Assembly (NCBI GenBank): GCA_030765185.1
Contig: JAVCDE010000027.1
Coordinates: 46,132-110,131, forward strand
Direction of reading: 5' to 3'
Origin: Candidatus Aceula meridiana
Lineage (GTDB): Bacteria; Omnitrophota; Gorgyraeia; Zapsychrales; Aceulaceae
Length of the DNA stretch: 64,000 nucleotides
Part shown: piece after piece, positions 6,845 to 53,902 of the stretch
How positions within the stretch are numbered: the first letter of the stretch is position 1
Layout of the letters: every line of letters begins with the position of its first letter
The notes under the pieces: generated by a model
The model's database searches: none
Told to the model about the DNA's origin: nothing
Seen by the model: the letters and a program-made list of their open reading frames with translations, nothing else
Translations under genes and position numbers: made by a program

Positions 6845-6963
6845 GGCTCTTTGACAATAATGAAAGGGGGTTTAAAAAAAAGAAAAAAATTCTTGAGATT
6901 AAATAAATTACGGTATAATAATAGTATAAATTTTATAAAACCAGGTTAAATAAGGAGGAAAAA

Positions 6964-7404
6964 ATGAGAATCAAAAATACAAAAGGTTTCACGTTGCTTG
7001 AAGTTATCATCGTTGTTATCATTGTCGCAGTTTTAGCCAGTGTGGCAATGCCGAAAATATCTTCATCCATTAACTTTTCTAAGGCAAAGGAAGCTCTCGG
7101 CTTTATCTCTGCCGCGAGAACTGCAATGGAGCAATGCTATCTTATGCAAAACAACACTTACACAAACTGTGACTGCGACGCATCAACTGCAGGATCTCTT
7201 TGCGAAGATATTTTAGGTGTTTCAATGGACGGAAAATATTTTCAAAACTATGAAATTGTTGGCGCGGATGCAACCGATTACACTATCCAGGTATGGTATG
7301 GAGTTAGCAAGGCAGCAGGGAATGCCAATTGGATAAAATTTGCTACAGCAGATGACCCATCAATCACAGGCGGTGGTTATTTCTCAAAATTAGTTGCACA
7401 ATAA
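6964..7404 (+). CDS. Type IV pilin (prepilin, class III signal; candidate major pilin)
   Basis: Leader MRIKNTKG|FTLLEV with Gly at -1 and Glu at +5, then a hydrophobic alpha1 helix. C-terminal Cys pairs. Promoter-like TTGAGA-N15-TATAAT and RBS AAGGAGG upstream. Confidence 0.75.
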   Translation: MRIKNTKGFTLLEVIIVVIIVAVLASVAMPKISSSINFSKAKEALGFISAARTAMEQCYLMQNNTYTNCDCDASTAGSLCEDILGVSMDGKYFQNYEIVGADATDYTIQVWYGVSKAAGNANWIKFATADDPSITGGGYFSKLVAQ

Positions 7405-7466
7405 AATTGATAATTACTGCTTAGAGAGCAGAAAAATTAACCCAGGGGCTCTTACAGAGCCCCTGG

Positions 7467-10625: not shown

Positions 10626-11363
10626 ATGCACCGAGCATTTCTTAAAACTTTAACAACAAATCAAAAAACTGTTACCCTTGCCGACTCATCGGAAATCCAT
10701 CATATTAAAAGAGTCCTTCGGCTTAAAGCCGGTGATGCCATCACACTTTTTAATGGGCAGGGGATAGAAGCCAAAGGCAAAATTTCCTCGTTTTCAAAAA
10801 ACTGTGTCCAAATCAAAATTGAAAAAATAACATCTGAAAAACATACCGGTCCAATTCTTACACTCGCCTGCGCGATTCCTAAAAAAGCTAAATTTCAAAC
10901 CATTATTGAAAAATGCACAGAGCTTGAAATCGATGAAATCATTCCGCTTGCGACAAAACGAACAGAAGTGCGCTTAAACGAGCTCCAAGCCCAAAAAAAA
11001 CTTATCCGCTACCAATCGGTGGCTATCAACGCCGCTAAGCAATCAAAAAGAAAAACTATTCCCGTAATATTACCTGTTGCTGACCTTAAGGGTGCACTGC
11101 AGCAAATCGATAAAAATACAATTGCTTTTATCGGATGCTTAGACGGTAACCGAAAATTATTAAAGTCTGTCCTTACCGAAGAATTAAAGGAAAAAGGACG
11201 CATTATTTTTTTCATCGGCCCAGAAGGAGACTTTACCAGTGAAGAAATAAAATCCGCGATTGATAGCGGATGCATTCCTATTGACCTAGGAAAGACTGTT
11301 CTTAAAGTTGATACAGCTGCGATTTCTGTTGTTTCATTTGCTCGCCTTTTATTATATTCTTAA
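10626..11363 (+). CDS. rsmE: 16S rRNA (uracil1498-N3)-methyltransferase RsmE
   Basis: 245 aa. N-terminal PUA-like region (HHIKRVLRLKAGDAITLFNGQG) and C-terminal SPOUT fold (IFFIGPEGDFTSEE). Family-level match. Confidence 0.75.
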   Translation: MHRAFLKTLTTNQKTVTLADSSEIHHIKRVLRLKAGDAITLFNGQGIEAKGKISSFSKNCVQIKIEKITSEKHTGPILTLACAIPKKAKFQTIIEKCTELEIDEIIPLATKRTEVRLNELQAQKKLIRYQSVAINAAKQSKRKTIPVILPVADLKGALQQIDKNTIAFIGCLDGNRKLLKSVLTEELKEKGRIIFFIGPEGDFTSEEIKSAIDSGCIPIDLGKTVLKVDTAAISVVSFARLLLYS

Positions 11364-11365
11364 CC

Positions 11366-11387
11366 CGGATTTTGTTAACAAAATCCG
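11366..11387. promoter_or_regulatory. 22-bp perfect palindrome CGGATTTTGTTAACAAAATCCG
   Basis: Seen directly, 3 nt after the rsmE stop. No trailing T-tract, so it is not a canonical intrinsic terminator. A second palindrome GTCGCAccttgtTGCGAC lies at 11404..11421. Confidence 0.4.
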
Positions 11388-11612
11388 CTCACAAAGCCGA
11401 GGCGTCGCACCTTGTTGCGACTTGCGAGACAGACCCCACCAAAGGCATTTTGCATTTGATTTTCCTTTCCTCATACATCGAAAAATGAAAAAAATGCTAA
11501 ATAAGAAAATTTGGTTAAGTAAAAATACTAATATTATATAAGAAAAACTTTTTACTCTGATAAAGAGTTGTAACATACTCTATGTCAGGGTGTTGCAAAC
11601 CTCTTGAAACAA

Positions 11613-11641
11613 TTGACAACAAATTGTTCCTCATGTATAAT
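11613..11641 (+). promoter_or_regulatory. Consensus sigma70-type promoter of recA (TTGACA-17-TATAAT)
   Basis: TTGACA at 11613-11618, a 17-nt spacer and TATAAT at 11636-11641, about 47 nt upstream of the recA ATG. An imperfect inverted repeat AACAATT-N7-AATTGTT overlaps the -35. Confidence 0.6.
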
Positions 11642-11688: not shown

Positions 11689-12705
11689 ATGAAAAATCAG
11701 AAAAAAACGGATAACTCTGAGAATAAACAAAAAGCTTTAGAGTTAGCCCTAAGCCAAATTGAAAAACAATTTGGTAAAGGTTCCATTATGAAGCTGGGTA
11801 ATGACTTTGTCGCAGACGTCGAGGCGATTCCAACAGGCTCGCTTGCCTTAGACATAGCCCTTGGCATAGGCGGTGTACCGCGTGGCCGTGTTATTGAAAT
11901 CTACGGACCGGAATCTTCCGGAAAAACAACGCTCACATTAAGCATCATTAATCAAACTCAAAAGCTCAATGGCGTTGCCGCTTTTATCGATGCTGAGCAT
12001 GCCTTTGATTCGTCTTATGCGAAGAAGCTAGGTGTCCAACTCGACGACCTTTTAGTTTCTCAGCCAGATACAGGAGAACAAGCTTTAGAGATTGCGGAAA
12101 CTCTTGTCCGCTCGAATGCGGTTGATTTAGTCGTCATTGACTCTGTGGCAGCTCTTACGCCACGCGCTGAGATTGAAGGAGACATGGGCGATTCGCACAT
12201 GGGACTTCAGGCAAGGTTGATGTCACAGGCACTTCGAAAGCTAACAGCCGCGATTTCAAAATCTAAAACATGCGTTATCTTTATCAATCAAATTCGTATG
12301 AAAATTGGCGTCATGTTTGGTTCTCCGGAAACAACTACCGGTGGCCGTGCTTTAAAATTCTACTCTTCAGTACGCATTGATTTAAGGCGTATTGAAACTT
12401 TAAAACAAGGGGATGTGGCGATTGGAAATCGCGTTAAAGCAAAGATTGTAAAAAACAAAGTCGCAGCGCCTTTCCGCGAAGCACGCTTTGAAATTCACTT
12501 TAGCGAAGGAATTTCACGCACAAGCGATGTTCTTGATTTAGGCATTGATAACGAGCTTATTAATAAATCCGGCTCATGGTTTTCTTATGAAGATCAGAAA
12601 ATCGGCCAGGGACGTGAAAGTGCCCGTGCCTTCTTAAAAGAGAATCCAAAAATTCTTGAAAAGATCGAAAAAGAAGTTCGCGAGAAATTTAACGCTAGTA
12701 GATAA
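11689..12705 (+). CDS. recA: Recombinase RecA
   Basis: Unmistakable RecA sequence: [32 protein letters not shown] (Walker A), L1 and L2 loops, 338 aa. Confidence 0.97.
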
Positions 12706-21636: not shown

Positions 21637-21702
21637 TAACAATCTTGAAATGTAATCAAAAACAGTTAATATAGTATAATTATCAATAGAAAGAGGGGTA
21701 AA

Positions 21703-21951
21703 ATGGAAGTACGCATTAGATTACAGCGGATAGGGAAATCAGCGAAAAAGCGATACAATTACCGCATCGTAGCTATTAAAAAACAAGCGAAGCGTGATTC
21801 TCGCACTCTTGATATCCTTGGCTATTACGATCCTGCAAAAAAGCCTGCGGTTGTTTCTCTTGACCAGCAAAAGCTGGAAAAATGGATCAAGCAAGGTGCT
21901 CAGATGAGCGACACTGTAAAAAACTTAGCAAAAAAATTAAAAAAAGCATAA
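21703..21951 (+). CDS. rpsP: 30S ribosomal protein S16
   Basis: 82 aa (MEVRIRLQRIGKSAKKRYNYRIVA...LGYYDP). Promoter-like TTGAAA...TATAGTATAAT upstream. Confidence 0.9.
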   Translation: MEVRIRLQRIGKSAKKRYNYRIVAIKKQAKRDSRTLDILGYYDPAKKPAVVSLDQQKLEKWIKQGAQMSDTVKNLAKKLKKA

Positions 21952-21981
21952 AAACATCTTTACTAAAGAAGCGAGGTTACT

Positions 21982-22263
21982 ATGGGCGGAGAATCAGCCG
22001 TTAATCCTATGGGCATGCTTATTCCTTATGCCTTAATTTTTGCAGTGTTTTACTTTTTAGTTATTAAACCGCAAAAAGATAAACAAAAGCAGCACGAGGC
22101 TATGGTTGGTGATTTAAAAAAAAATGACGAAGTTGTAACCTCCGGAGGTATCCACGGAACAGTTGTGAATACAAAAGATGCCACAATTACTGTTCGTGTT
22201 GATGATAATGTAAAAATCGAAATCGACAGATCCGCAGTGCTGCGCGTGATCAAAAAGACTTAA
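21982..22263 (+). CDS. yajC: Preprotein translocase subunit YajC
   Basis: 93 aa. Single TM then the conserved YajC motif (KKNDEVVTSGGIHGTVV). Sits directly upstream of secDF. Confidence 0.75.
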   Translation: MGGESAVNPMGMLIPYALIFAVFYFLVIKPQKDKQKQHEAMVGDLKKNDEVVTSGGIHGTVVNTKDATITVRVDDNVKIEIDRSAVLRVIKKT

Positions 22264-22281
22264 AATAAGGAGTTTTCAACA

Positions 22282-45985: not shown

Positions 45986-46002
45986 GTGCCTTACCTGACA
46001 AC

Positions 46003-47871
46003 ATGCAAATAAAACAAACACGAAAATATGAATATCTGGTGTGGTCTTGTATTGCAATCTATGCTATTGCTTTTTTCTCATGCTCAGCTTTACGTTTTTT
46101 TGCTTTTGATTATTATGATATGGATTTTGCAGTCTACGCCCAAATCATATGGAATATTTTACATGGTTCTCTAAACAGTTCCGTCTTAGGCATAAATTTT
46201 ATCGGTCATCACGTTCATCTTATTGCCTTTCCAGTGGCCCTTATATACAAAATCATTCCGCACCCCTTAACGCTTTTATTCCTTCAAACTTTAGTTCTAG
46301 CTCTAGGAGCATACCCACTATATTTGATTGGACGCCACGCGATTGGTCCACGCCTAGCATTTGCAGTAAGTGCTACATATCTACTATATCCTAGTCTAGG
46401 ATATATGAATCTTTACGAATTCCATTTTACGCCATTTGCAACCTTGGCGCTTTTTTATATGATATATTTCTTTATTGAGAGAAAATATTTATTATTTATC
46501 ATATCAACAATATCGGCTCTTATTTGCCAAGAAAATATATCTTTAGCGGTGCTTGCCTTTGGAATTTATGCATTATTTTTACGAAGATCTCCTCGATGGT
46601 GGCTTTTTTTAATGATGGCAGGGATAGCTTATTTCTTGCTATGTGCAAAAATCATTCTCCCAGCACTAAATCCTGACACAATTCAATTTATGTCAATCTA
46701 TAAACATTTAGGGGGAAGCTACGTAGAAATAATTTACAACATATTTACTCACCCTAAAGCTGTTTTTCTCTACATGAGCACTCCTGAAAAAATATACTGG
46801 CTTACTCAATTATTTGGACCATTATTTTATCTTCCCCTGGCAAGTCCAGGATACTTAATTCCATCTATTCCTTTTTTTATGCAACATCTCCTTTCTAGTC
46901 GTCCTCAAGAAATCGACATCCATCTTCATTACACAGCGGAATTAATACCTTTTATTTTCGTATCATTTATTTTCGGTATTAAGAAATTGATTTCCACTCG
47001 AATATTTTTAAAAAGAGAGCTCTCCCTGATGTGGATAATTTTAGCTTTTTCTATTTTTAATGCAGTTGCCGCAGGACCGCATTTTCGTCTATTCAAAAAA
47101 AGCTCTATTGTGCAAAATTATCATGATAATATAAAATCAAAACTCCTTCGAAAGATCCCAAAAGATGCGGCGGTCTTGGCAACATTTGAATTTATGCCTT
47201 CCTTGAGCAATAGGAAAAATTTATTCTCTTTTCATCATGTTTTAAGAGGCTACTACACTCTTTCAAATAAACCCTACAAGCTGCCAAGAAAAATTGATTA
47301 TGCTTTAATTGATTTCAACGATCCTTTGACGCTTGGATCTTTCTATTCTCCGCAACAATATAAAAACATTCAAGCTCTTATCGAAGAACAAAATTTAGTA
47401 GCTATTGAGATAAGAAATAATTTTGTTTTATTTAAAAAAGGAGGCGTCAAGGGAAAGCCTCTCTATAAAGCCTCCCAAAAAAATTCGATCTCTTCAGGAA
47501 AGAAAGGTACTATTATTGACGGCACCCTAAAACTAAATGGAATTAAAGCAATAAACAAAGGGGACACTGTCGAAGCTATTTTTGATTGGACCGCACTAGA
47601 AAAAACATCAAAGGATATCGGAATCTTTTTTAAATTTAGCGATGCCTTAGGAGATCTCGTTGACCAAACAACAAGTCAAATTTGCTACAGAATTTATCCA
47701 ACTCAGGCATGGAAAAAAGGCGAACATATTTCTGACTATAAATATCTAGTTATTCCCCCTATTCTAAAAGGAAAACCATATGATATACTCATAGGGTTCT
47801 ATGATTTTAAAACCAAAAGGATATTGAAGTCGGGAATCCCTCTCGAAATTTCAAAAGAAAGCAATTTATGA
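46003..47871 (+). CDS. DUF2079-family polytopic membrane protein (GT-C-fold glycosyltransferase-like) with a C-terminal extracytoplasmic domain
   Basis: 622 aa. About 11 TM helices in the first 390 aa. Acidic first-loop motif (FDYYDMDFAVYAQIIWNILHGS). Conserved GHHVHLIAFPVALIY...PLTLLFLQTLVLALGAYPLYLIGR block recalled for DUF2079. About 230-aa soluble C-terminal domain. Confidence 0.55.
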   Translation: MQIKQTRKYEYLVWSCIAIYAIAFFSCSALRFFAFDYYDMDFAVYAQIIWNILHGSLNSSVLGINFIGHHVHLIAFPVALIYKIIPHPLTLLFLQTLVLALGAYPLYLIGRHAIGPRLAFAVSATYLLYPSLGYMNLYEFHFTPFATLALFYMIYFFIERKYLLFIISTISALICQENISLAVLAFGIYALFLRRSPRWWLFLMMAGIAYFLLCAKIILPALNPDTIQFMSIYKHLGGSYVEIIYNIFTHPKAVFLYMSTPEKIYWLTQLFGPLFYLPLASPGYLIPSIPFFMQHLLSSRPQEIDIHLHYTAELIPFIFVSFIFGIKKLISTRIFLKRELSLMWIILAFSIFNAVAAGPHFRLFKKSSIVQNYHDNIKSKLLRKIPKDAAVLATFEFMPSLSNRKNLFSFHHVLRGYYTLSNKPYKLPRKIDYALIDFNDPLTLGSFYSPQQYKNIQALIEEQNLVAIEIRNNFVLFKKGGVKGKPLYKASQKNSISSGKKGTIIDGTLKLNGIKAINKGDTVEAIFDWTALEKTSKDIGIFFKFSDALGDLVDQTTSQICYRIYPTQAWKKGEHISDYKYLVIPPILKGKPYDILIGFYDFKTKRILKSGIPLEISKESNL

Positions 47872-49553
47872 TAAACGAAACAAAATGCCATCTGTGTGGA
47901 AGCTCCTCCTATCGAGTTAAGTACGGTTCATCTAAAACCATAAAAGACTTTACGCAAGCAGGCTATAAAATAACAGACCATTCGACAGATGGGCCCATAA
48001 GAATTATTTCTTGCCTTAGGTGTGGGTTATCCTTTCTTAATCCGAAGCTAGACAACCAAACCATTTTGGACAACTATGCCTCGATGACTGATGAAAAATA
48101 TATCGAAGAGGAGGAGGGGCGCAGAAAATCAGCTCGCTCCGTCTTAAATTATTTAAAAAAATTTAAAAACCCAGGGCGTCTCCTTGATGTAGGCTGCGCC
48201 TCAGGATTTCTTTTAGATGAAGCAAAAAAGCTAGGCTGGGAGGTCTACGGAGTAGAGCTTTCTCAGTGGGCCGCCAAATACGCCCATGGCAAATTACAAC
48301 TAAACAATGTTATTCAAGGAACTTTAAAAGAAGCGAATTTCCAGAATAATTTCTTTGACGCAGTTTTAATGATCGATGTGATTGAGCATCTTTCTAATCC
48401 AAAAGCGATGCTCTATAGAATACGACAACTTTTAAAACCTTCCGGAGTCCTATGCTGCAGCACCCCCGACATTGATAGCACTGTCAGCAAAATATTAAAA
48501 GCAAAATGGTGGGGAATAAAGCAATCCCATTTATATTATTTTAATAAATCAACACTTAGCAAACTTCTTGTTTCAACGGGATTTTTCCCAATGAAAATAC
48601 GTTCTCATGCAAGAACCTTCTCCCTAGGATACTGGTTCTCAAACCTATCTTCCTACACCTCATTCTTAAAATTTATAAATCCTTTTCTTAAAAAGAATCC
48701 AAAACTAAAATCAAGACTTTTGAGTCTCTCCCTAGGAGATCAAATCGAAATATTTGCTCGCAAAAGCCGCCAAATAAAATACCTTCCAGAGTTAGAAATG
48801 ACAGAGCCACAAGCAATAAAAGGAGAGAAGAAAAAAATTGTTGCTGTCCTTCCGGCATATAACGCAGAAGAAACTTTAAAAATAACAGTAGGCGATATCC
48901 CTAGAGATACGATAGATGATATCATCCTTGTAGACGATGCCAGTAAAGATAATACCGTTGCAATGGCTCGTCAGCTAGGGCTTCACGTCTTTCGACATAA
49001 TAAAAATAAAGGATATGGAGGAAATCAGAAAACCTGCTATCGGAAAGCTCTGGAAATGGGAGCAGATATCATAATCATGGTGCATCCTGACTACCAATAC
49101 GATCCAAAAGCTATTCCAAGGCTCATAGAGCCTTTGATAAAAGGAAAAGCTGATGCTGTTTTTGGTTCTCGAATGATGAAGGGAAGCGCCCTCGAAGGTG
49201 GCATGCCCATGTGGAAGCATAGTGCAAACATTCTATTAACAGCGCTTGAAAATGTAACGCTTGGAATATATTTAACAGAATATCATACAGGATTAAGAGC
49301 TTATAGCAAAAAATACCTAGAAAATATAAATTTTGAAGCTAACTCAAATAATTTTGTTTTTGATACAGAAATTATTGTTCAAGGTGCTTTAAAATTTATG
49401 CGTCTTGAAGAGGTTCCCATTAAAACAAGATATTTTGATGAAGCTTCGTCTATACAGCTGTGGCCCTGCATTGTCTATGGACTGGGAATATTAAAAACAC
49501 TATTGAAAGTTATTATTCATAGAACTATTTTTCGCTTTAAACAGTTTGAATAA
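47868..49553 (+). CDS. Zn-ribbon + class I SAM-dependent methyltransferase + family-2 glycosyltransferase (DPM1/GtrB-like) fusion protein
   Basis: N-terminal CxxC...CxxC. SAM motif LLDVGCASGFLLDEA...VIEHL. C-terminal GT2 (VLPAYNAEETL...VDDASKDNT...HPDYQYDP...GSRMM) with two C-terminal TM helices typical of polyprenyl-phosphate sugar synthases. Confidence 0.7.
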   Translation: MINETKCHLCGSSSYRVKYGSSKTIKDFTQAGYKITDHSTDGPIRIISCLRCGLSFLNPKLDNQTILDNYASMTDEKYIEEEEGRRKSARSVLNYLKKFKNPGRLLDVGCASGFLLDEAKKLGWEVYGVELSQWAAKYAHGKLQLNNVIQGTLKEANFQNNFFDAVLMIDVIEHLSNPKAMLYRIRQLLKPSGVLCCSTPDIDSTVSKILKAKWWGIKQSHLYYFNKSTLSKLLVSTGFFPMKIRSHARTFSLGYWFSNLSSYTSFLKFINPFLKKNPKLKSRLLSLSLGDQIEIFARKSRQIKYLPELEMTEPQAIKGEKKKIVAVLPAYNAEETLKITVGDIPRDTIDDIILVDDASKDNTVAMARQLGLHVFRHNKNKGYGGNQKTCYRKALEMGADIIIMVHPDYQYDPKAIPRLIEPLIKGKADAVFGSRMMKGSALEGGMPMWKHSANILLTALENVTLGIYLTEYHTGLRAYSKKYLENINFEANSNNFVFDTEIIVQGALKFMRLEEVPIKTRYFDEASSIQLWPCIVYGLGILKTLLKVIIHRTIFRFKQFE

Positions 49554-49621
49554 AGAAATTCTTAAAAACAACAGCAAGCACATAAACTATTTTAATATTC
49601 TTCGCGCTGAATAATAAAGAA

Positions 49622-49630
49622 TGATATACT
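49622..49630 (+). promoter_or_regulatory. Extended -10 promoter (TGaTATACT) for the pilin gene 49665
   Basis: AATGaTATACTTatatTAAGTAAA is near-identical to the element upstream of the 9495 pilin gene (AATGcTATACTTTAAGTAAG). Confidence 0.4.
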
Positions 49631-49664
49631 TATATTAAGTAAATTATTAAAGAAGGAGTGTAGA

Positions 49665-50087
49665 ATGCGTACTTTTAAAATCAAAAGTTTCCCAAAAAAA
49701 AGCGGTTTCACTCTTATGGAAGTTATCATTGTCATTATTATTGCAGGCATTCTGGCAAGCGTGGCAATCCCGAGATACAGTGGCGCAATTGAAAAATCAA
49801 GAGCAGCAGAGGGAGCTTATATTTTAGGAACTTTGTTAGGTGCTCAAGAGCGTTACAATCTTGAAAATAGTAGCTACGCAGATGATCCCGCGTTATTAGA
49901 TGTGACAATTCCAACTCCAAGGAATTTTAACGACCCGAGCGTATCCTCAAATTGCTGCAACACTGATGATACCGTATGTGCCTCGATCGTGAGAGGGGGA
50001 GCATTATATACACTCAGTATACAATGCGATGGTGATATTGTATGCCTGAATGCTGAGGTTGGAGCTTGTGGAAGTGCTGGATACTAA
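49665..50087 (+). CDS. Type IV pilin-like protein (prepilin) with a Cys-rich C-terminal domain
   Basis: MRTFKIKSFPKKSG|FTLMEVIIVIIIAGILASVAIP is a class III signal. 8 Cys in the C-terminal 50 aa. RBS AAGAAGGAG. Confidence 0.7.
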   Translation: MRTFKIKSFPKKSGFTLMEVIIVIIIAGILASVAIPRYSGAIEKSRAAEGAYILGTLLGAQERYNLENSSYADDPALLDVTIPTPRNFNDPSVSSNCCNTDDTVCASIVRGGALYTLSIQCDGDIVCLNAEVGACGSAGY

Positions 50088-50102
50088 TATGGCTTTGACT
50101 AC

Positions 50103-50141
50103 AAAAAAGGCTCTTTGGGTTTTCCCAAAGAGCCTTTTTTT
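50103..50141. terminator. Bidirectional Rho-independent terminator between the convergent pilin and pfk genes
   Basis: AAAAAAGGCTCTTTGGG-tttt-CCCAAAGAGCCTTTTTTT is a perfect 11-bp stem flanked by A- and T-tracts. Confidence 0.7.
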
Positions 50142-50164
50142 ATTTCCTTATCTTCGCGAATGCT

Positions 50165-51827: not shown

Positions 51828-51901
51828 GCGAGAGTAGTTCAGTGGTAGAACACAAGCCTTCCAAGCTTGTTACGAGGGTTCGATTCCCTTCTCTCGCTCC
51901 A
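51828..51901 (+). tRNA. tRNA-Gly (anticodon UCC)
   Basis: Acceptor GCGAGAG/CTCTCGC. Anticodon arm CAAGC-CTTCCAA-GCTTG. 4-nt variable loop. U73 discriminator, typical of Gly. Encoded CCA. Confidence 0.85.
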
Positions 51902-51925: not shown

Positions 51926-52630
51926 ATGAAAGTTACCCTTCTTATTCCTACACTCAACGAAGAAGAAGGCATGAAAGCTATCATGCCTCGCATCAAGCCG
52001 GAATGGTACGATCAGCTCTTAATCGTTGACGGTCAGTCAACTGATGGAACTGTTGAATACTCAAAATCCCAAGGATACCCTGTCATCATCCAAAAGAAAA
52101 AAGGATTACGCGAAGCCTATAATGAAGCCTTGCCGCATATTGAAGGCGACGTTGTCTTAACTTTTAGCCCTGATGGAAACAGCATTCCTGAGCTCATCCC
52201 TGATTGCATCAACAAAATGAAAGAGGGCTACGACATGGTTATTGTTTCGCGCTATGCCAAAGGCGCCAAAAGCTATGATGATGATATGGTCACAGCGTTT
52301 GGAAACAAGCTGTTTACAACTTTTATCAACCTTTTTCACGGGGGTCACTATACAGATGCCATGGTTATGTTCCGTGCCTACAAAACACAACTGATTTACG
52401 ATTTAGATCTCGATAAAGATGAAAGCTACGCGTTTGAAGAAAAACTTTTTGGAACAAATGTCAGCTGGGAACCCTTAATATCTATCCGTGCCGCCAAACG
52501 TAAGCTAAAACTTGCCGATATTCCTGGAGATGAGCCTGCTAGAGAAGGAGGCGAGCGTAAACTTCAAATTATACGCTGGGGTGCGGCCTACATGTGGGAA
52601 GTCTTCCGCGAAATTTTTGTCTGGAAATAG
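51926..52630 (+). CDS. Family-2 glycosyltransferase (DPM1-like, soluble)
   Basis: ATG at 51926 with an AAAGGAG RBS. GT2 motifs (LLIPTLNEEEG, LIVDGQSTDGT, VIVSRY). The track ORF start at 51842 runs through the tRNA-Gly gene and is not credible. Confidence 0.7.
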   Translation: MKVTLLIPTLNEEEGMKAIMPRIKPEWYDQLLIVDGQSTDGTVEYSKSQGYPVIIQKKKGLREAYNEALPHIEGDVVLTFSPDGNSIPELIPDCINKMKEGYDMVIVSRYAKGAKSYDDDMVTAFGNKLFTTFINLFHGGHYTDAMVMFRAYKTQLIYDLDLDKDESYAFEEKLFGTNVSWEPLISIRAAKRKLKLADIPGDEPAREGGERKLQIIRWGAAYMWEVFREIFVWK

Positions 52631-52716
52631 CCTGCCACCCGCATGAAAAACCTCCATCAAAGTCAACAACTTTTCCCTTGAAAGCCTGCGTAGCTATAAT
52701 ATAATAGTATAAATAT

Positions 52717-52890
52717 TAATCTCGGGTTTACTGTGCAAAAACCCACCCATAGGGTGCTGCTTCGCAACTTGGTGCGACTATCGGGATTTACCCCGCCAAA
52801 GGCGGTTTTACAATAGAATTTTTTATCAGTTAATGTAAATGAAATATTCTATTGTAAAACTTCGGGTTTATATTTCTATCTGTTTTTTAG
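52717..52890 (+). other. Unassigned structured intergenic element (candidate small RNA or 5' leader of gpsA)
   Basis: Promoter-like TTGAAA-16-TATAAT at 52675-52706. Three direct repeats of TCGGG(A)TTTA (52722, 52781, 52862). Five hairpins, including a 14-bp perfect stem (52806-52819 / 52846-52859). T-tract at 52882-52888. Confidence 0.25.
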
Positions 52891-52906
52891 CCAAAAGGTA
52901 CAAATT

Positions 52907-53902
52907 ATGATTAAGCACGTTTCAGTTATTGGCGATGGAGGGTGGGGGACAACCCTAGCAATTCATTTATTAAAAAATGGATGTCCGGTTACGCTTTGGA
53001 GCCCATTCCCTAAATATGCCAAAATTTTAAAAAAAACACGAAAAAACAAAAAGTTTCTTCCTGGCGTAACAATCCCGAAAAAAATAAAGATTACAGATTG
53101 CTTAAAAACTGCTATCGAAGAATCTGACCTAATTGTCTTAGCTATCCCATCACAATACATTAAAAACATTCTCAAAAAGATTAAGAAATTTAATTCTTCC
53201 ACAAAATCCTTTTTAAGCGTTGTGAAGGGGATCGATACTGCCTCGCTCAAAAGAATGTCAGAAATTATTCATGATGAATTAGGAGCATCCATTAAGCTAG
53301 CTGTTCTTTCCGGACCAACTATTGCTAATGAAGTTGCCAATGGAATTCCTTCAGCAGCTGTCGTCGCATCACGCAACCGAAAACTAACAAAAACAATCCA
53401 AAAAACTTTTAACTCCCCGACCTTCCGCATCTATACAAACTCTGATATCATAGGAGTAGAAGTTGCCGGAAGCATTAAGAATATTATTGCTATTGCCTGC
53501 GGTGTCTGCGATGGATTAGGATTTGGGACAAATACAAAATCTGCCATTGTAACGCGAGGCCTTGCAGAGATGACACGACTAGGAAAGACCTTAGGCTCTA
53601 AAACAAAAACATTTTCCGGGTTAAGCGGATTAGGAGACTTAGCAACCACATGTTTTAGTCCTCAAAGTCGAAACCGTTATGTCGGCGAACAACTCGCCAA
53701 AGGTAAAAATATAAAACAAATTACCGCATCTATGCAGATGGTTGCCGAAGGTATTTCAACAGTCAAGGCAGTTTATCATCTAGGGAAAAAATACCATTTG
53801 GCGATGCCGATTACAAGCGAAGTTTTTCACATTATCTATAAAAGAAAAAATCCGTCTAAAGCAGTAAAAGATTTAATGGCTCGAAAAACAAAATCCGAAT
53901 AA
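52907..53902 (+). CDS. gpsA: Glycerol-3-phosphate dehydrogenase [NAD(P)+]
   Basis: 331 aa (VSVIGDGGWGTTLAIHL Rossmann motif, GPTIANEVA, GLGDLATTC). Confidence 0.9.
   Translation: MIKHVSVIGDGGWGTTLAIHLLKNGCPVTLWSPFPKYAKILKKTRKNKKFLPGVTIPKKIKITDCLKTAIEESDLIVLAIPSQYIKNILKKIKKFNSSTKSFLSVVKGIDTASLKRMSEIIHDELGASIKLAVLSGPTIANEVANGIPSAAVVASRNRKLTKTIQKTFNSPTFRIYTNSDIIGVEVAGSIKNIIAIACGVCDGLGFGTNTKSAIVTRGLAEMTRLGKTLGSKTKTFSGLSGLGDLATTCFSPQSRNRYVGEQLAKGKNIKQITASMQMVAEGISTVKAVYHLGKKYHLAMPITSEVFHIIYKRKNPSKAVKDLMARKTKSE

Follow-up and report, generated by a model that had tools for sequence, protein, structure and literature searches.

In the window, which is the whole 64,000-nt stretch of Candidatus Aceula meridiana DNA that was analysed, a family-2 glycosyltransferase gene (GT2) ends at position 52630 and is followed, after a spacer of 276 nt, by gpsA (52907-53902, + strand; Pfam NAD_Gly3P_dh_N, E 3e-47, and NAD_Gly3P_dh_C, E 4e-57). 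The spacer holds the promoter-like element that a first reading of the letters (the original prediction) had claimed, a TTGAAA-16-TATAAT on the + strand at 52678-52705 with 11/12 consensus matches, and this promoter is conserved in relatives. Between its -10 box and the gpsA ribosome-binding region lies a 150-nt element, designated copy A (52719-52868, + strand, boundaries good to ~2 nt). As read from the sequence, the element is flanked by TA on the left (52717-52718, within the TTAA at 52716-52719) and on the right (52869-52870), and its junctions are TTAA and TTTA, respectively. The T-tract claimed near the end of the element is present at 52883-52888. No terminator-like site was called on the + strand 3' of the long hairpin at copy A.

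The GT2 ORF, taken from its mechanical GTG start at 51842, overlaps a tRNA-Gly gene (51828-51901) over positions 51842-51901. Since the GT2 proteins of the relatives are 234 aa long, versus 262 aa here, the true start is probably ~28 codons downstream.

The element had been described as non-coding, and no + strand ORF of at least 30 aa was found inside copy A. The sole ORF of at least 30 aa that overlaps it, a TTG ORF encoding 34 aa, runs on the - strand, and no gene was called over copy A in two same-species contigs (L081 and L082). All three of the direct repeats claimed for this stretch were recovered, TCGGGTTTA at 52722-52730 and 52862-52870 and TCGGGATTTA at 52781-52790. The repeat at 52722-52730 lies at the left end of copy A, and the one at 52862-52870 consists of its last 7 nt and the flanking TA. 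Two or more copies of TCGGGTTTA were obtained in 8/100 shuffles of the whole window and one or more of TCGGGRTTTA in 23/100, so that neither count is unusual; what is notable about the repeats is that all three sites fall within 150 nt. The perfect 14-bp AT-rich stem of the original prediction, TTTTACAATAGAAT, was confirmed as a pairing of 52806-52819 with 52846-52859; counted over its full length, the stem has arms of 22 nt with 91% complementarity. On the + strand the fold z-score was -3.45 for 52712-52906 and -3.88 for 52718-52875, with 0/200 dinucleotide shuffles equally stable in each case. A candidate internal promoter at 52787-52814 (TTTACC-16-TACAAT) was rejected as weak (9/12) and, by reading, not conserved in the second copy described below.

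A second copy between rsmE and recA

When the element was used as an nhmmer query, a second match was obtained in the window at ~11364-11468 (E 6.3e-7). The full second copy, copy B, is 153 nt long (11363-11515, + strand) and scored 107 bits with a covariance model. The copies are ~63% identical and lie 41 kb apart in the 64-kb window. A two-copy HMM recovered both at 90-93 bits, and the covariance model did so at 107-110 bits. Copy B is flanked by TA at 11361-11362 and 11516-11517, within TTAA at 11360-11363 and 11515-11518. It is located between rsmE (10626-11363) and recA (11689-12705), where it directly follows the stop codon of rsmE and precedes the recA promoter, a perfect TTGACA-17-TATAAT at 11613-11641. 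The parts recognised in it are H1 (11366-11387), P2 (11389-11396 with 11421-11427), H3 (11405-11420), a conserved block (11433-11446) and H6 (11447-11502).

All reading frames of copies A and B hold stop codons. A small protein or pseudogene was considered as an explanation of their similarity; the ungapped alignment was similar in every frame, with an in-frame stop in copy B, and this reading was rejected as uninformative.

H1 of copy B (11366-11387) is a perfect 22-bp palindrome, CGGATTTTGTTAACAAAATCCG. The terminal repeat of the Neisseria Correia element reads GGATTAACAAAAA-C, and GTTAACAAAATCC, which is part of copy B H1, is loosely like it, probably by coincidence.

Both insertion sites are empty in relatives

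GpsA of the window is 100% identical to a protein recorded for Candidatus Aceula meridiana, an Omnitrophota MAG. After this same-species record, the next-best GpsA proteins are only ~71% identical, and that of Ca. Aceula lacicola is among them. The gpsA locus (site A) was compared in seven relatives, namely A. lacicola (L001/L182), L002, L003, L004, L178/L179, L180 and L181. The GT2-gpsA gene order and the promoter are kept in 7/7, and in L178 and L182, which were compared over a longer stretch, the wider synteny extends over ~20 kb. The GT2-gpsA spacer measures 113-116 nt in L178, L179, L181 and L182 versus 276 nt in the window, and the extra DNA of the window forms a single block: copy A is absent from this spacer in all seven relatives, and their gpsA ATG stands close behind the -10 box. 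L002, L178, L179, L181 and L182, as well as L001, L003, L004 and L180, all keep the promoter stretch CTTGAAAG...TATAATATAAT...TAAATAT. Because it aligns across relatives that have no insert, the gpsA promoter is older than the insert and not part of it.

These comparisons do not support the suggestion that the element is a leader or regulator of gpsA, as it is missing from the spacer of all seven relatives. The original prediction had proposed that the lack of a discrete transcript and of conservation or covariation in relatives would make the stretch AT-rich spacer with chance hairpins. No conservation was found at orthologous loci, but the element is not chance spacer; it is a repeated insert with conserved structure.

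Site B gave a similar picture. RsmE is ~70% identical in L183, L184 and L185 versus 53% in A. lacicola (L186), which makes the first three closer relatives than A. lacicola. The rsmE-recA order is kept in L183 and A. lacicola, and L184 and L185 align across the end of rsmE and the adjoining spacer. A clean gap with both flanks aligned was observed in L183, L184 and L185, and L186 is also without the copy. In the window the site reads TTCTTAA, then the insert (CCCGG...TTTGGTTA), then AGTAAAAAT; the empty site reads TTCTTAG followed by AGTAATAAT in L183 and CTCTT followed by AGTAAGAAT in L185.

The recA promoter downstream of copy B is itself conserved in L183, L184 and L186, where a conserved GAAACAATTGACAA precedes it. 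In the window an inverted repeat, ACAATT-N7-AATTGT, overlaps the recA -35 box and is only partly conserved in the relatives; it could be an operator or could have arisen by chance.

Two other Omnitrophota MAGs, L005 and L072, carry different GC-rich, repeat-like inserts with internal inverted repeats in the GT2-gpsA spacer, each at ~2790-2990. That of L005 has cgtgcgcagtgcgtactgcgtgttgcgtta ... taacgcaatacgcccgacgcaatacgaac, and that of L072 has repeated gtaagacg motifs facing cgtcttac. Small repeats that are unrelated to each other may have landed in the GT2-gpsA spacer repeatedly. Further upstream, at 45986-50164 of the window, between a Carb_kinase gene and a minus-strand PFK gene, there are three extra ORFs of 622 aa, 561 aa and 140 aa, the last of them pilin-like (N_methyl motif and a weak ComP_DUS match). 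At the same position L178 has nothing (7218-7286) and L182 only a 131-aa N_methyl protein (6889-7415). The extra ORFs represent a gene insertion that is specific to the lineage and not far from gpsA.

Common architecture and paired changes

The two copies have the same order of modules (H1, P2 around H3, the conserved block and H6), and both are oriented with their neighbouring genes. H1 of copy A is a 5' subterminal hairpin, GGGTTT/AAACCC (52724-52744, + strand), which folds; copy B has CGGATTTTG/CAAAATCCG at the same place, and two pairs are changed on both sides by eye if a 1-nt register shift is allowed. P2 (52746-52753 with 52778-52784, + strand) was found in the RNAalifold consensus, where it encloses H3 (52746-52784 in all). 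H3 itself, TCGCA-ACTTGG-TGCGA at 52762-52777 on the + strand, has a stem that is identical in both copies. Taken together, P2 and H3 keep 11/11 pairs in both copies with 3 changed on both sides, which is 100% pairing against 27-50% in slid-strand controls.

The conserved block ACCCCGCCAAAGGC (52790-52803, + strand) is identical to copy B at 13/14 positions. In copy A it could be framed by the hairpin CCGCC/GGCGG, which is impossible in copy B, so the constraint here is on the sequence and not on pairing. Conservation across the whole core (55/87 positions, 63%) is blocky, reaching 16/18 positions in TCGCAnCTTGnTGCGACT and 13/14 in ACCCCnCCAAAGGC.

H6, the AT-rich hairpin near the 3' end (52805-52860, + strand), to which the 14-bp stem of copy A belongs, is common to the two copies and spans exactly 56 nt in each. 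In H6, 4/11 aligned pairs are changed on both sides, and 95.5% of cells pair versus 41-55% in the slid controls. These paired-change tests compare two sequences only and are of limited strength; 31/500 and 71/500 shuffles do as well. Two G-U pairs (pair 35-62 and one in the H6 extension) form on the + strand only. The fold z-scores were -3.9 for copy A and -2.2 for copy B.

The four short GC hairpins of the original prediction all occur in the minimum-free-energy fold of copy A, but only GGGTTT/AAACCC and TCGCA/TGCGA are common to copy B; CACCC/GGGTG and CCGCC/GGCGG belong to copy A alone. Nor does copy B preserve the three direct repeats. As copy B also stands in an unrelated context, the proposal that the repeats form a regulator-binding array found no support.

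The left 85 nt, or core, of the element are 55% GC versus 40% for the genome, and H6 is 18-25% GC. That stems of 9-15 perfect pairs stay intact at ~63% identity is hard to reconcile with neutral decay alone. Either selection acts on the structure at the present sites, or two master elements that had already diverged gave rise to the copies recently, and the latter case predicts more copies elsewhere in the genome.

Ends of the element and search for a transposase

TA stands on both sides of both copies and may be a target-site duplication, although TA is frequent by chance in AT-rich spacers and the empty sites of the relatives are too diverged for a duplication to be read to the exact base. 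The end-anchored terminal inverted repeat is weak, with 6/12 matches in each copy (P ~0.06 each), and local-alignment shuffle tests of the terminal inverted repeats gave p = 0.57 for copy A and p = 0.09 for copy B. Each end forms its own local hairpin, and the two ends do not pair together. The left hairpin is only 3-5 nt from the junction, and GTAG is absent from both copies.

Of the window ORFs, 33 were tested, 9 of which had no Pfam match; none was recognised as a transposase, and neither a Y1 transposase nor TnpB was among them. The Pfam-matched ORFs of the window have core functions, which include type II/IV secretion, pilus, RecA, RecX, AlaS, histidine biosynthesis, TrpE and SecDF, among others.

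The longest apparent intergenic gap of the window, the 645 nt between trpE and secDF (21637-22281), is not empty. It holds two small ORFs, both below the 100-aa ORF cut-off, of which 21703-21951 (MEVRIRLQRIGKS...) is by eye like ribosomal protein S16 and 21982-22263 is by eye like YajC.

Searches for known families and further copies

The original prediction had named no known RNA family for the element, and the Rfam results agree with it. At gathering scores, Rfam 15 returned only tRNAs from the whole window. E-value scans of both copies gave only hairpin-shaped sub-threshold matches (E at least 0.24 at copy A), the best of which scored 20-21 bits against thresholds of 41-86 bits. A tRNA or tmRNA fragment or an attachment-site remnant was considered for the ...CCCCNCCA ending and rejected for want of ARAGORN or Rfam support.

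Run with filters off over the 64-kb window, the covariance model (R1) found only copies A and B. R1 and nhmmer searches gave no credible further copy in ~472 kb of gpsA loci (80 relatives, mostly Omnitrophota, and two same-species contigs), and the 49 kb examined on either side of gpsA in the nearest relatives likewise yielded none. The two same-species contigs, L081 and L082, match the model exactly like copy A and add no variation; for RsmE of the window, the contig index has no record. No copy was found in 15 kb of rsmE loci or 381 kb of recA loci, and overall there were none in ~1.06 Mb of other loci, mostly of other Omnitrophota. None of the RecA-anchored metagenome loci has rsmE beside recA. 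A JGI metagenome pattern scan with TCGCANNTTGNTGCGAN{10,14}CCCCNCCAAAGG gave 0 matches, and the matches from two IMG/VR pattern scans scored no better under R1 than the seeded motif; we estimate that their number is about that expected by chance. Searches with blastn against phage and plasmid collections gave nothing with E <0.5, and no paper describing such repeats in Omnitrophota was found in the library searched, where the one paper to mention both this phylum and MITEs appears to deal with a chlamydial symbiont of hydra.

Discussion

Two homologous copies that are ORF-less, flanked by TA and both clean insertions bear the signature of a small non-autonomous mobile repeat (PMC2229807). The element is thus probably an undescribed ~150-nt non-coding interspersed repeat, MITE-like in the broad sense of a non-autonomous mobile element, and the structured stretch in front of gpsA is real but most likely not a gpsA-specific regulator. 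Both copies are situated in intergenic DNA of a compact core-genome region. Small mobile repeats of bacteria are <200 bp, non-coding and intergenic, have TA at their ends, and contain stem-loops that are co-transcribed with neighbouring genes (PMC2229807). Our element resembles MITEs in its size (150/153 nt), its lack of a coding frame and its filled versus empty sites. Most bacterial small mobile repeats are also A+T-rich, which is typical rather than defining (PMC2229807), and in this respect the element differs, with 41% GC over its whole length versus 40% for the genome. Several further observations speak against a mobile repeat. Two copies were seen, both within the 64-kb window, and their two invariant internal blocks are not what one expects if the element is purely a parasite in decay. 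The terminal inverted repeats are weak, each end has a hairpin of its own, the 33 window ORFs scanned gave no transposase and the left 85 nt are GC-rich.

We envisage that the element inserted at TA (or TTAA) in AT-rich intergenic DNA in the lineage of Candidatus Aceula meridiana, presumably moved by a transposase encoded elsewhere. Copy A would have landed ~13 nt 3' of the -10 box that gpsA already possessed, and copy B directly behind the rsmE stop codon. Transcription from the conserved gpsA promoter, with a predicted start near 52712, would make copy A the first part of the gpsA mRNA, and the insert would now belong to the gpsA 5' UTR. That UTR would have been lengthened from an estimated 25-35 nt in the relatives to ~195 nt, most of it consisting of the element. 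Any effect on gpsA through mRNA stability, processing or partial termination would probably be a side effect of the insertion and not dedicated control.

Among described systems, the element most resembles the class formed by Correia, RUP, ERIC and BOX. Like Correia/NEMIS of Neisseria, RUP of Streptococcus pneumoniae and ERIC of enterobacteria, it is <200 bp, non-coding and intergenic with TA junctions, has filled and empty sites, and is co-oriented and presumably co-transcribed with its neighbours, adding stem-loops to UTRs (PMC2229807). Unlike them, it has weak terminal inverted repeats (6/12), a chain of local hairpins instead of one end-to-end hairpin, a GC-rich left half, two copies that are only 63% alike and no partner insertion sequence among the window ORFs scanned. 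With the modular pneumococcal BOX elements and with the Caulobacter repeat, of which the 5' and 3' halves fold independently (PMC3049150; PMC2229807), it shares several separate stem-loops in place of a single palindrome and a location in UTRs. It has no sequence relationship to either, and the two copies give no sign of a variable module copy number. Subterminal hairpins, the lack of a clear terminal inverted repeat, the TTAA at the left junction and the single orientation recall PATEs and REP/REPIN elements. Against this likeness, the hairpin stands too close to the junction for an IS608-type layout, there is no GTAG head, no Y1 or TnpB was seen among the ORFs tested, and TA at both junctions is just as compatible with a duplication.

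The features that sit least easily with a simple parasite could mean that the element is or carries a functional RNA module, such as a paralogous sRNA, a ribozyme, a scaffold for a guide RNA or a regulator whose seed is C-rich. The activity would then reside in the 85-nt core, and mobility would be no more than its means of spread. The blocky conservation of TCGCAnCTTGnTGCGACT and ACCCCnCCAAAGGC, the paired changes in P2 and H6, the G-U pairs found on the + strand only, the fold z-scores of both copies and the fact that both face the direction of transcription all point this way. Yet the comparison consists of two sequences, for which the covariation statistics are capped at 31/500 and 71/500 shuffles, both copies lack a promoter of their own and a canonical terminator, and neither the ~1.06 Mb of other loci, the JGI pattern scan nor Rfam yielded a copy or a family; we regard a functional RNA module as possible, though on balance unlikely. 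Rather less likely is the version in which a mobile cassette carries the 85-nt GC-rich core as a new functional RNA, with the AT-rich hairpin and the TA-flanked ends serving mobility only. Such a core could consist of the 5' hairpin, the covarying helix round an invariant TCGCA-N6-TGCGA and an invariant, single-stranded ACCCCnCCAAAGGC, and it could regulate in trans by pairing of its C-rich block with Shine-Dalgarno-like sequences, or serve as a scaffold RNA for a nuclease or recombinase whose gene lies elsewhere in the genome.

Mobility of another kind would be at work if the element were a hairpin-ended derivative of a single-strand transposon, that is, a PATE (an IS200/IS605 remnant that has lost its ORFs) or a REP-like element mobilised by a Y1 transposase, inserted 3' of TTAA without target duplication. 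A convincing terminal inverted repeat is absent, each end has its own subterminal hairpin, and within each copy the 5' arms of these hairpins are alike (GGGTTTAC/GGTTTTAC in A and GGATTTTG/GCATTTTG in B); TTAA at the left junction of both copies and their common orientation are in keeping with this. The IS608 architecture needs room for a guide and cleavage-site arrangement between hairpin and junction, and the 3-5 nt to the left hairpin do not provide it. No GTAG-type REP head was seen, no Y1 transposase or TnpB was among the ORFs tested, and no transposon-associated RNA family turned up when either copy was scanned against Rfam by E-value, which leaves this derivation doubtful. A cis-acting leader dedicated to gpsA, whether riboswitch, attenuator or protein-binding site, was suggested by the highly structured element between promoter and start codon and by the U-rich stretch after the long hairpin. 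The comparative data largely refute it and make it very improbable: the element is absent from the gpsA leader in all seven relatives, in which gene order and promoter are kept; copy B, 3' of rsmE and upstream of recA's own promoter, is not a comparable leader; the direct repeats are not conserved in copy B; and no terminator-like site follows the hairpin on the + strand. Chance hairpins and repeats in AT-rich spacer would account for short repeats that are not unusual against whole-window shuffles and for terminal inverted repeats that are not significant. This last explanation is refuted by the second copy (E 6e-7) and by the empty sites, which show both loci to be clean insertions, and copy A also folds more stably than every shuffle; hardly any probability attaches to it.

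Read as a lineage-specific insertion, the orphan structured RNA candidate in front of gpsA is explained, and its mis-annotation as a gpsA riboswitch is avoided. If a functional core RNA were nevertheless present, the element would be an example of an RNA module spreading by transposition. As a probable mobile repeat, it appears to represent an undescribed small repeat family in Omnitrophota, and its position shows that an essential lipid-precursor gene, gpsA, tolerates a structured insert of 150 nt between its promoter and its ribosome-binding site.
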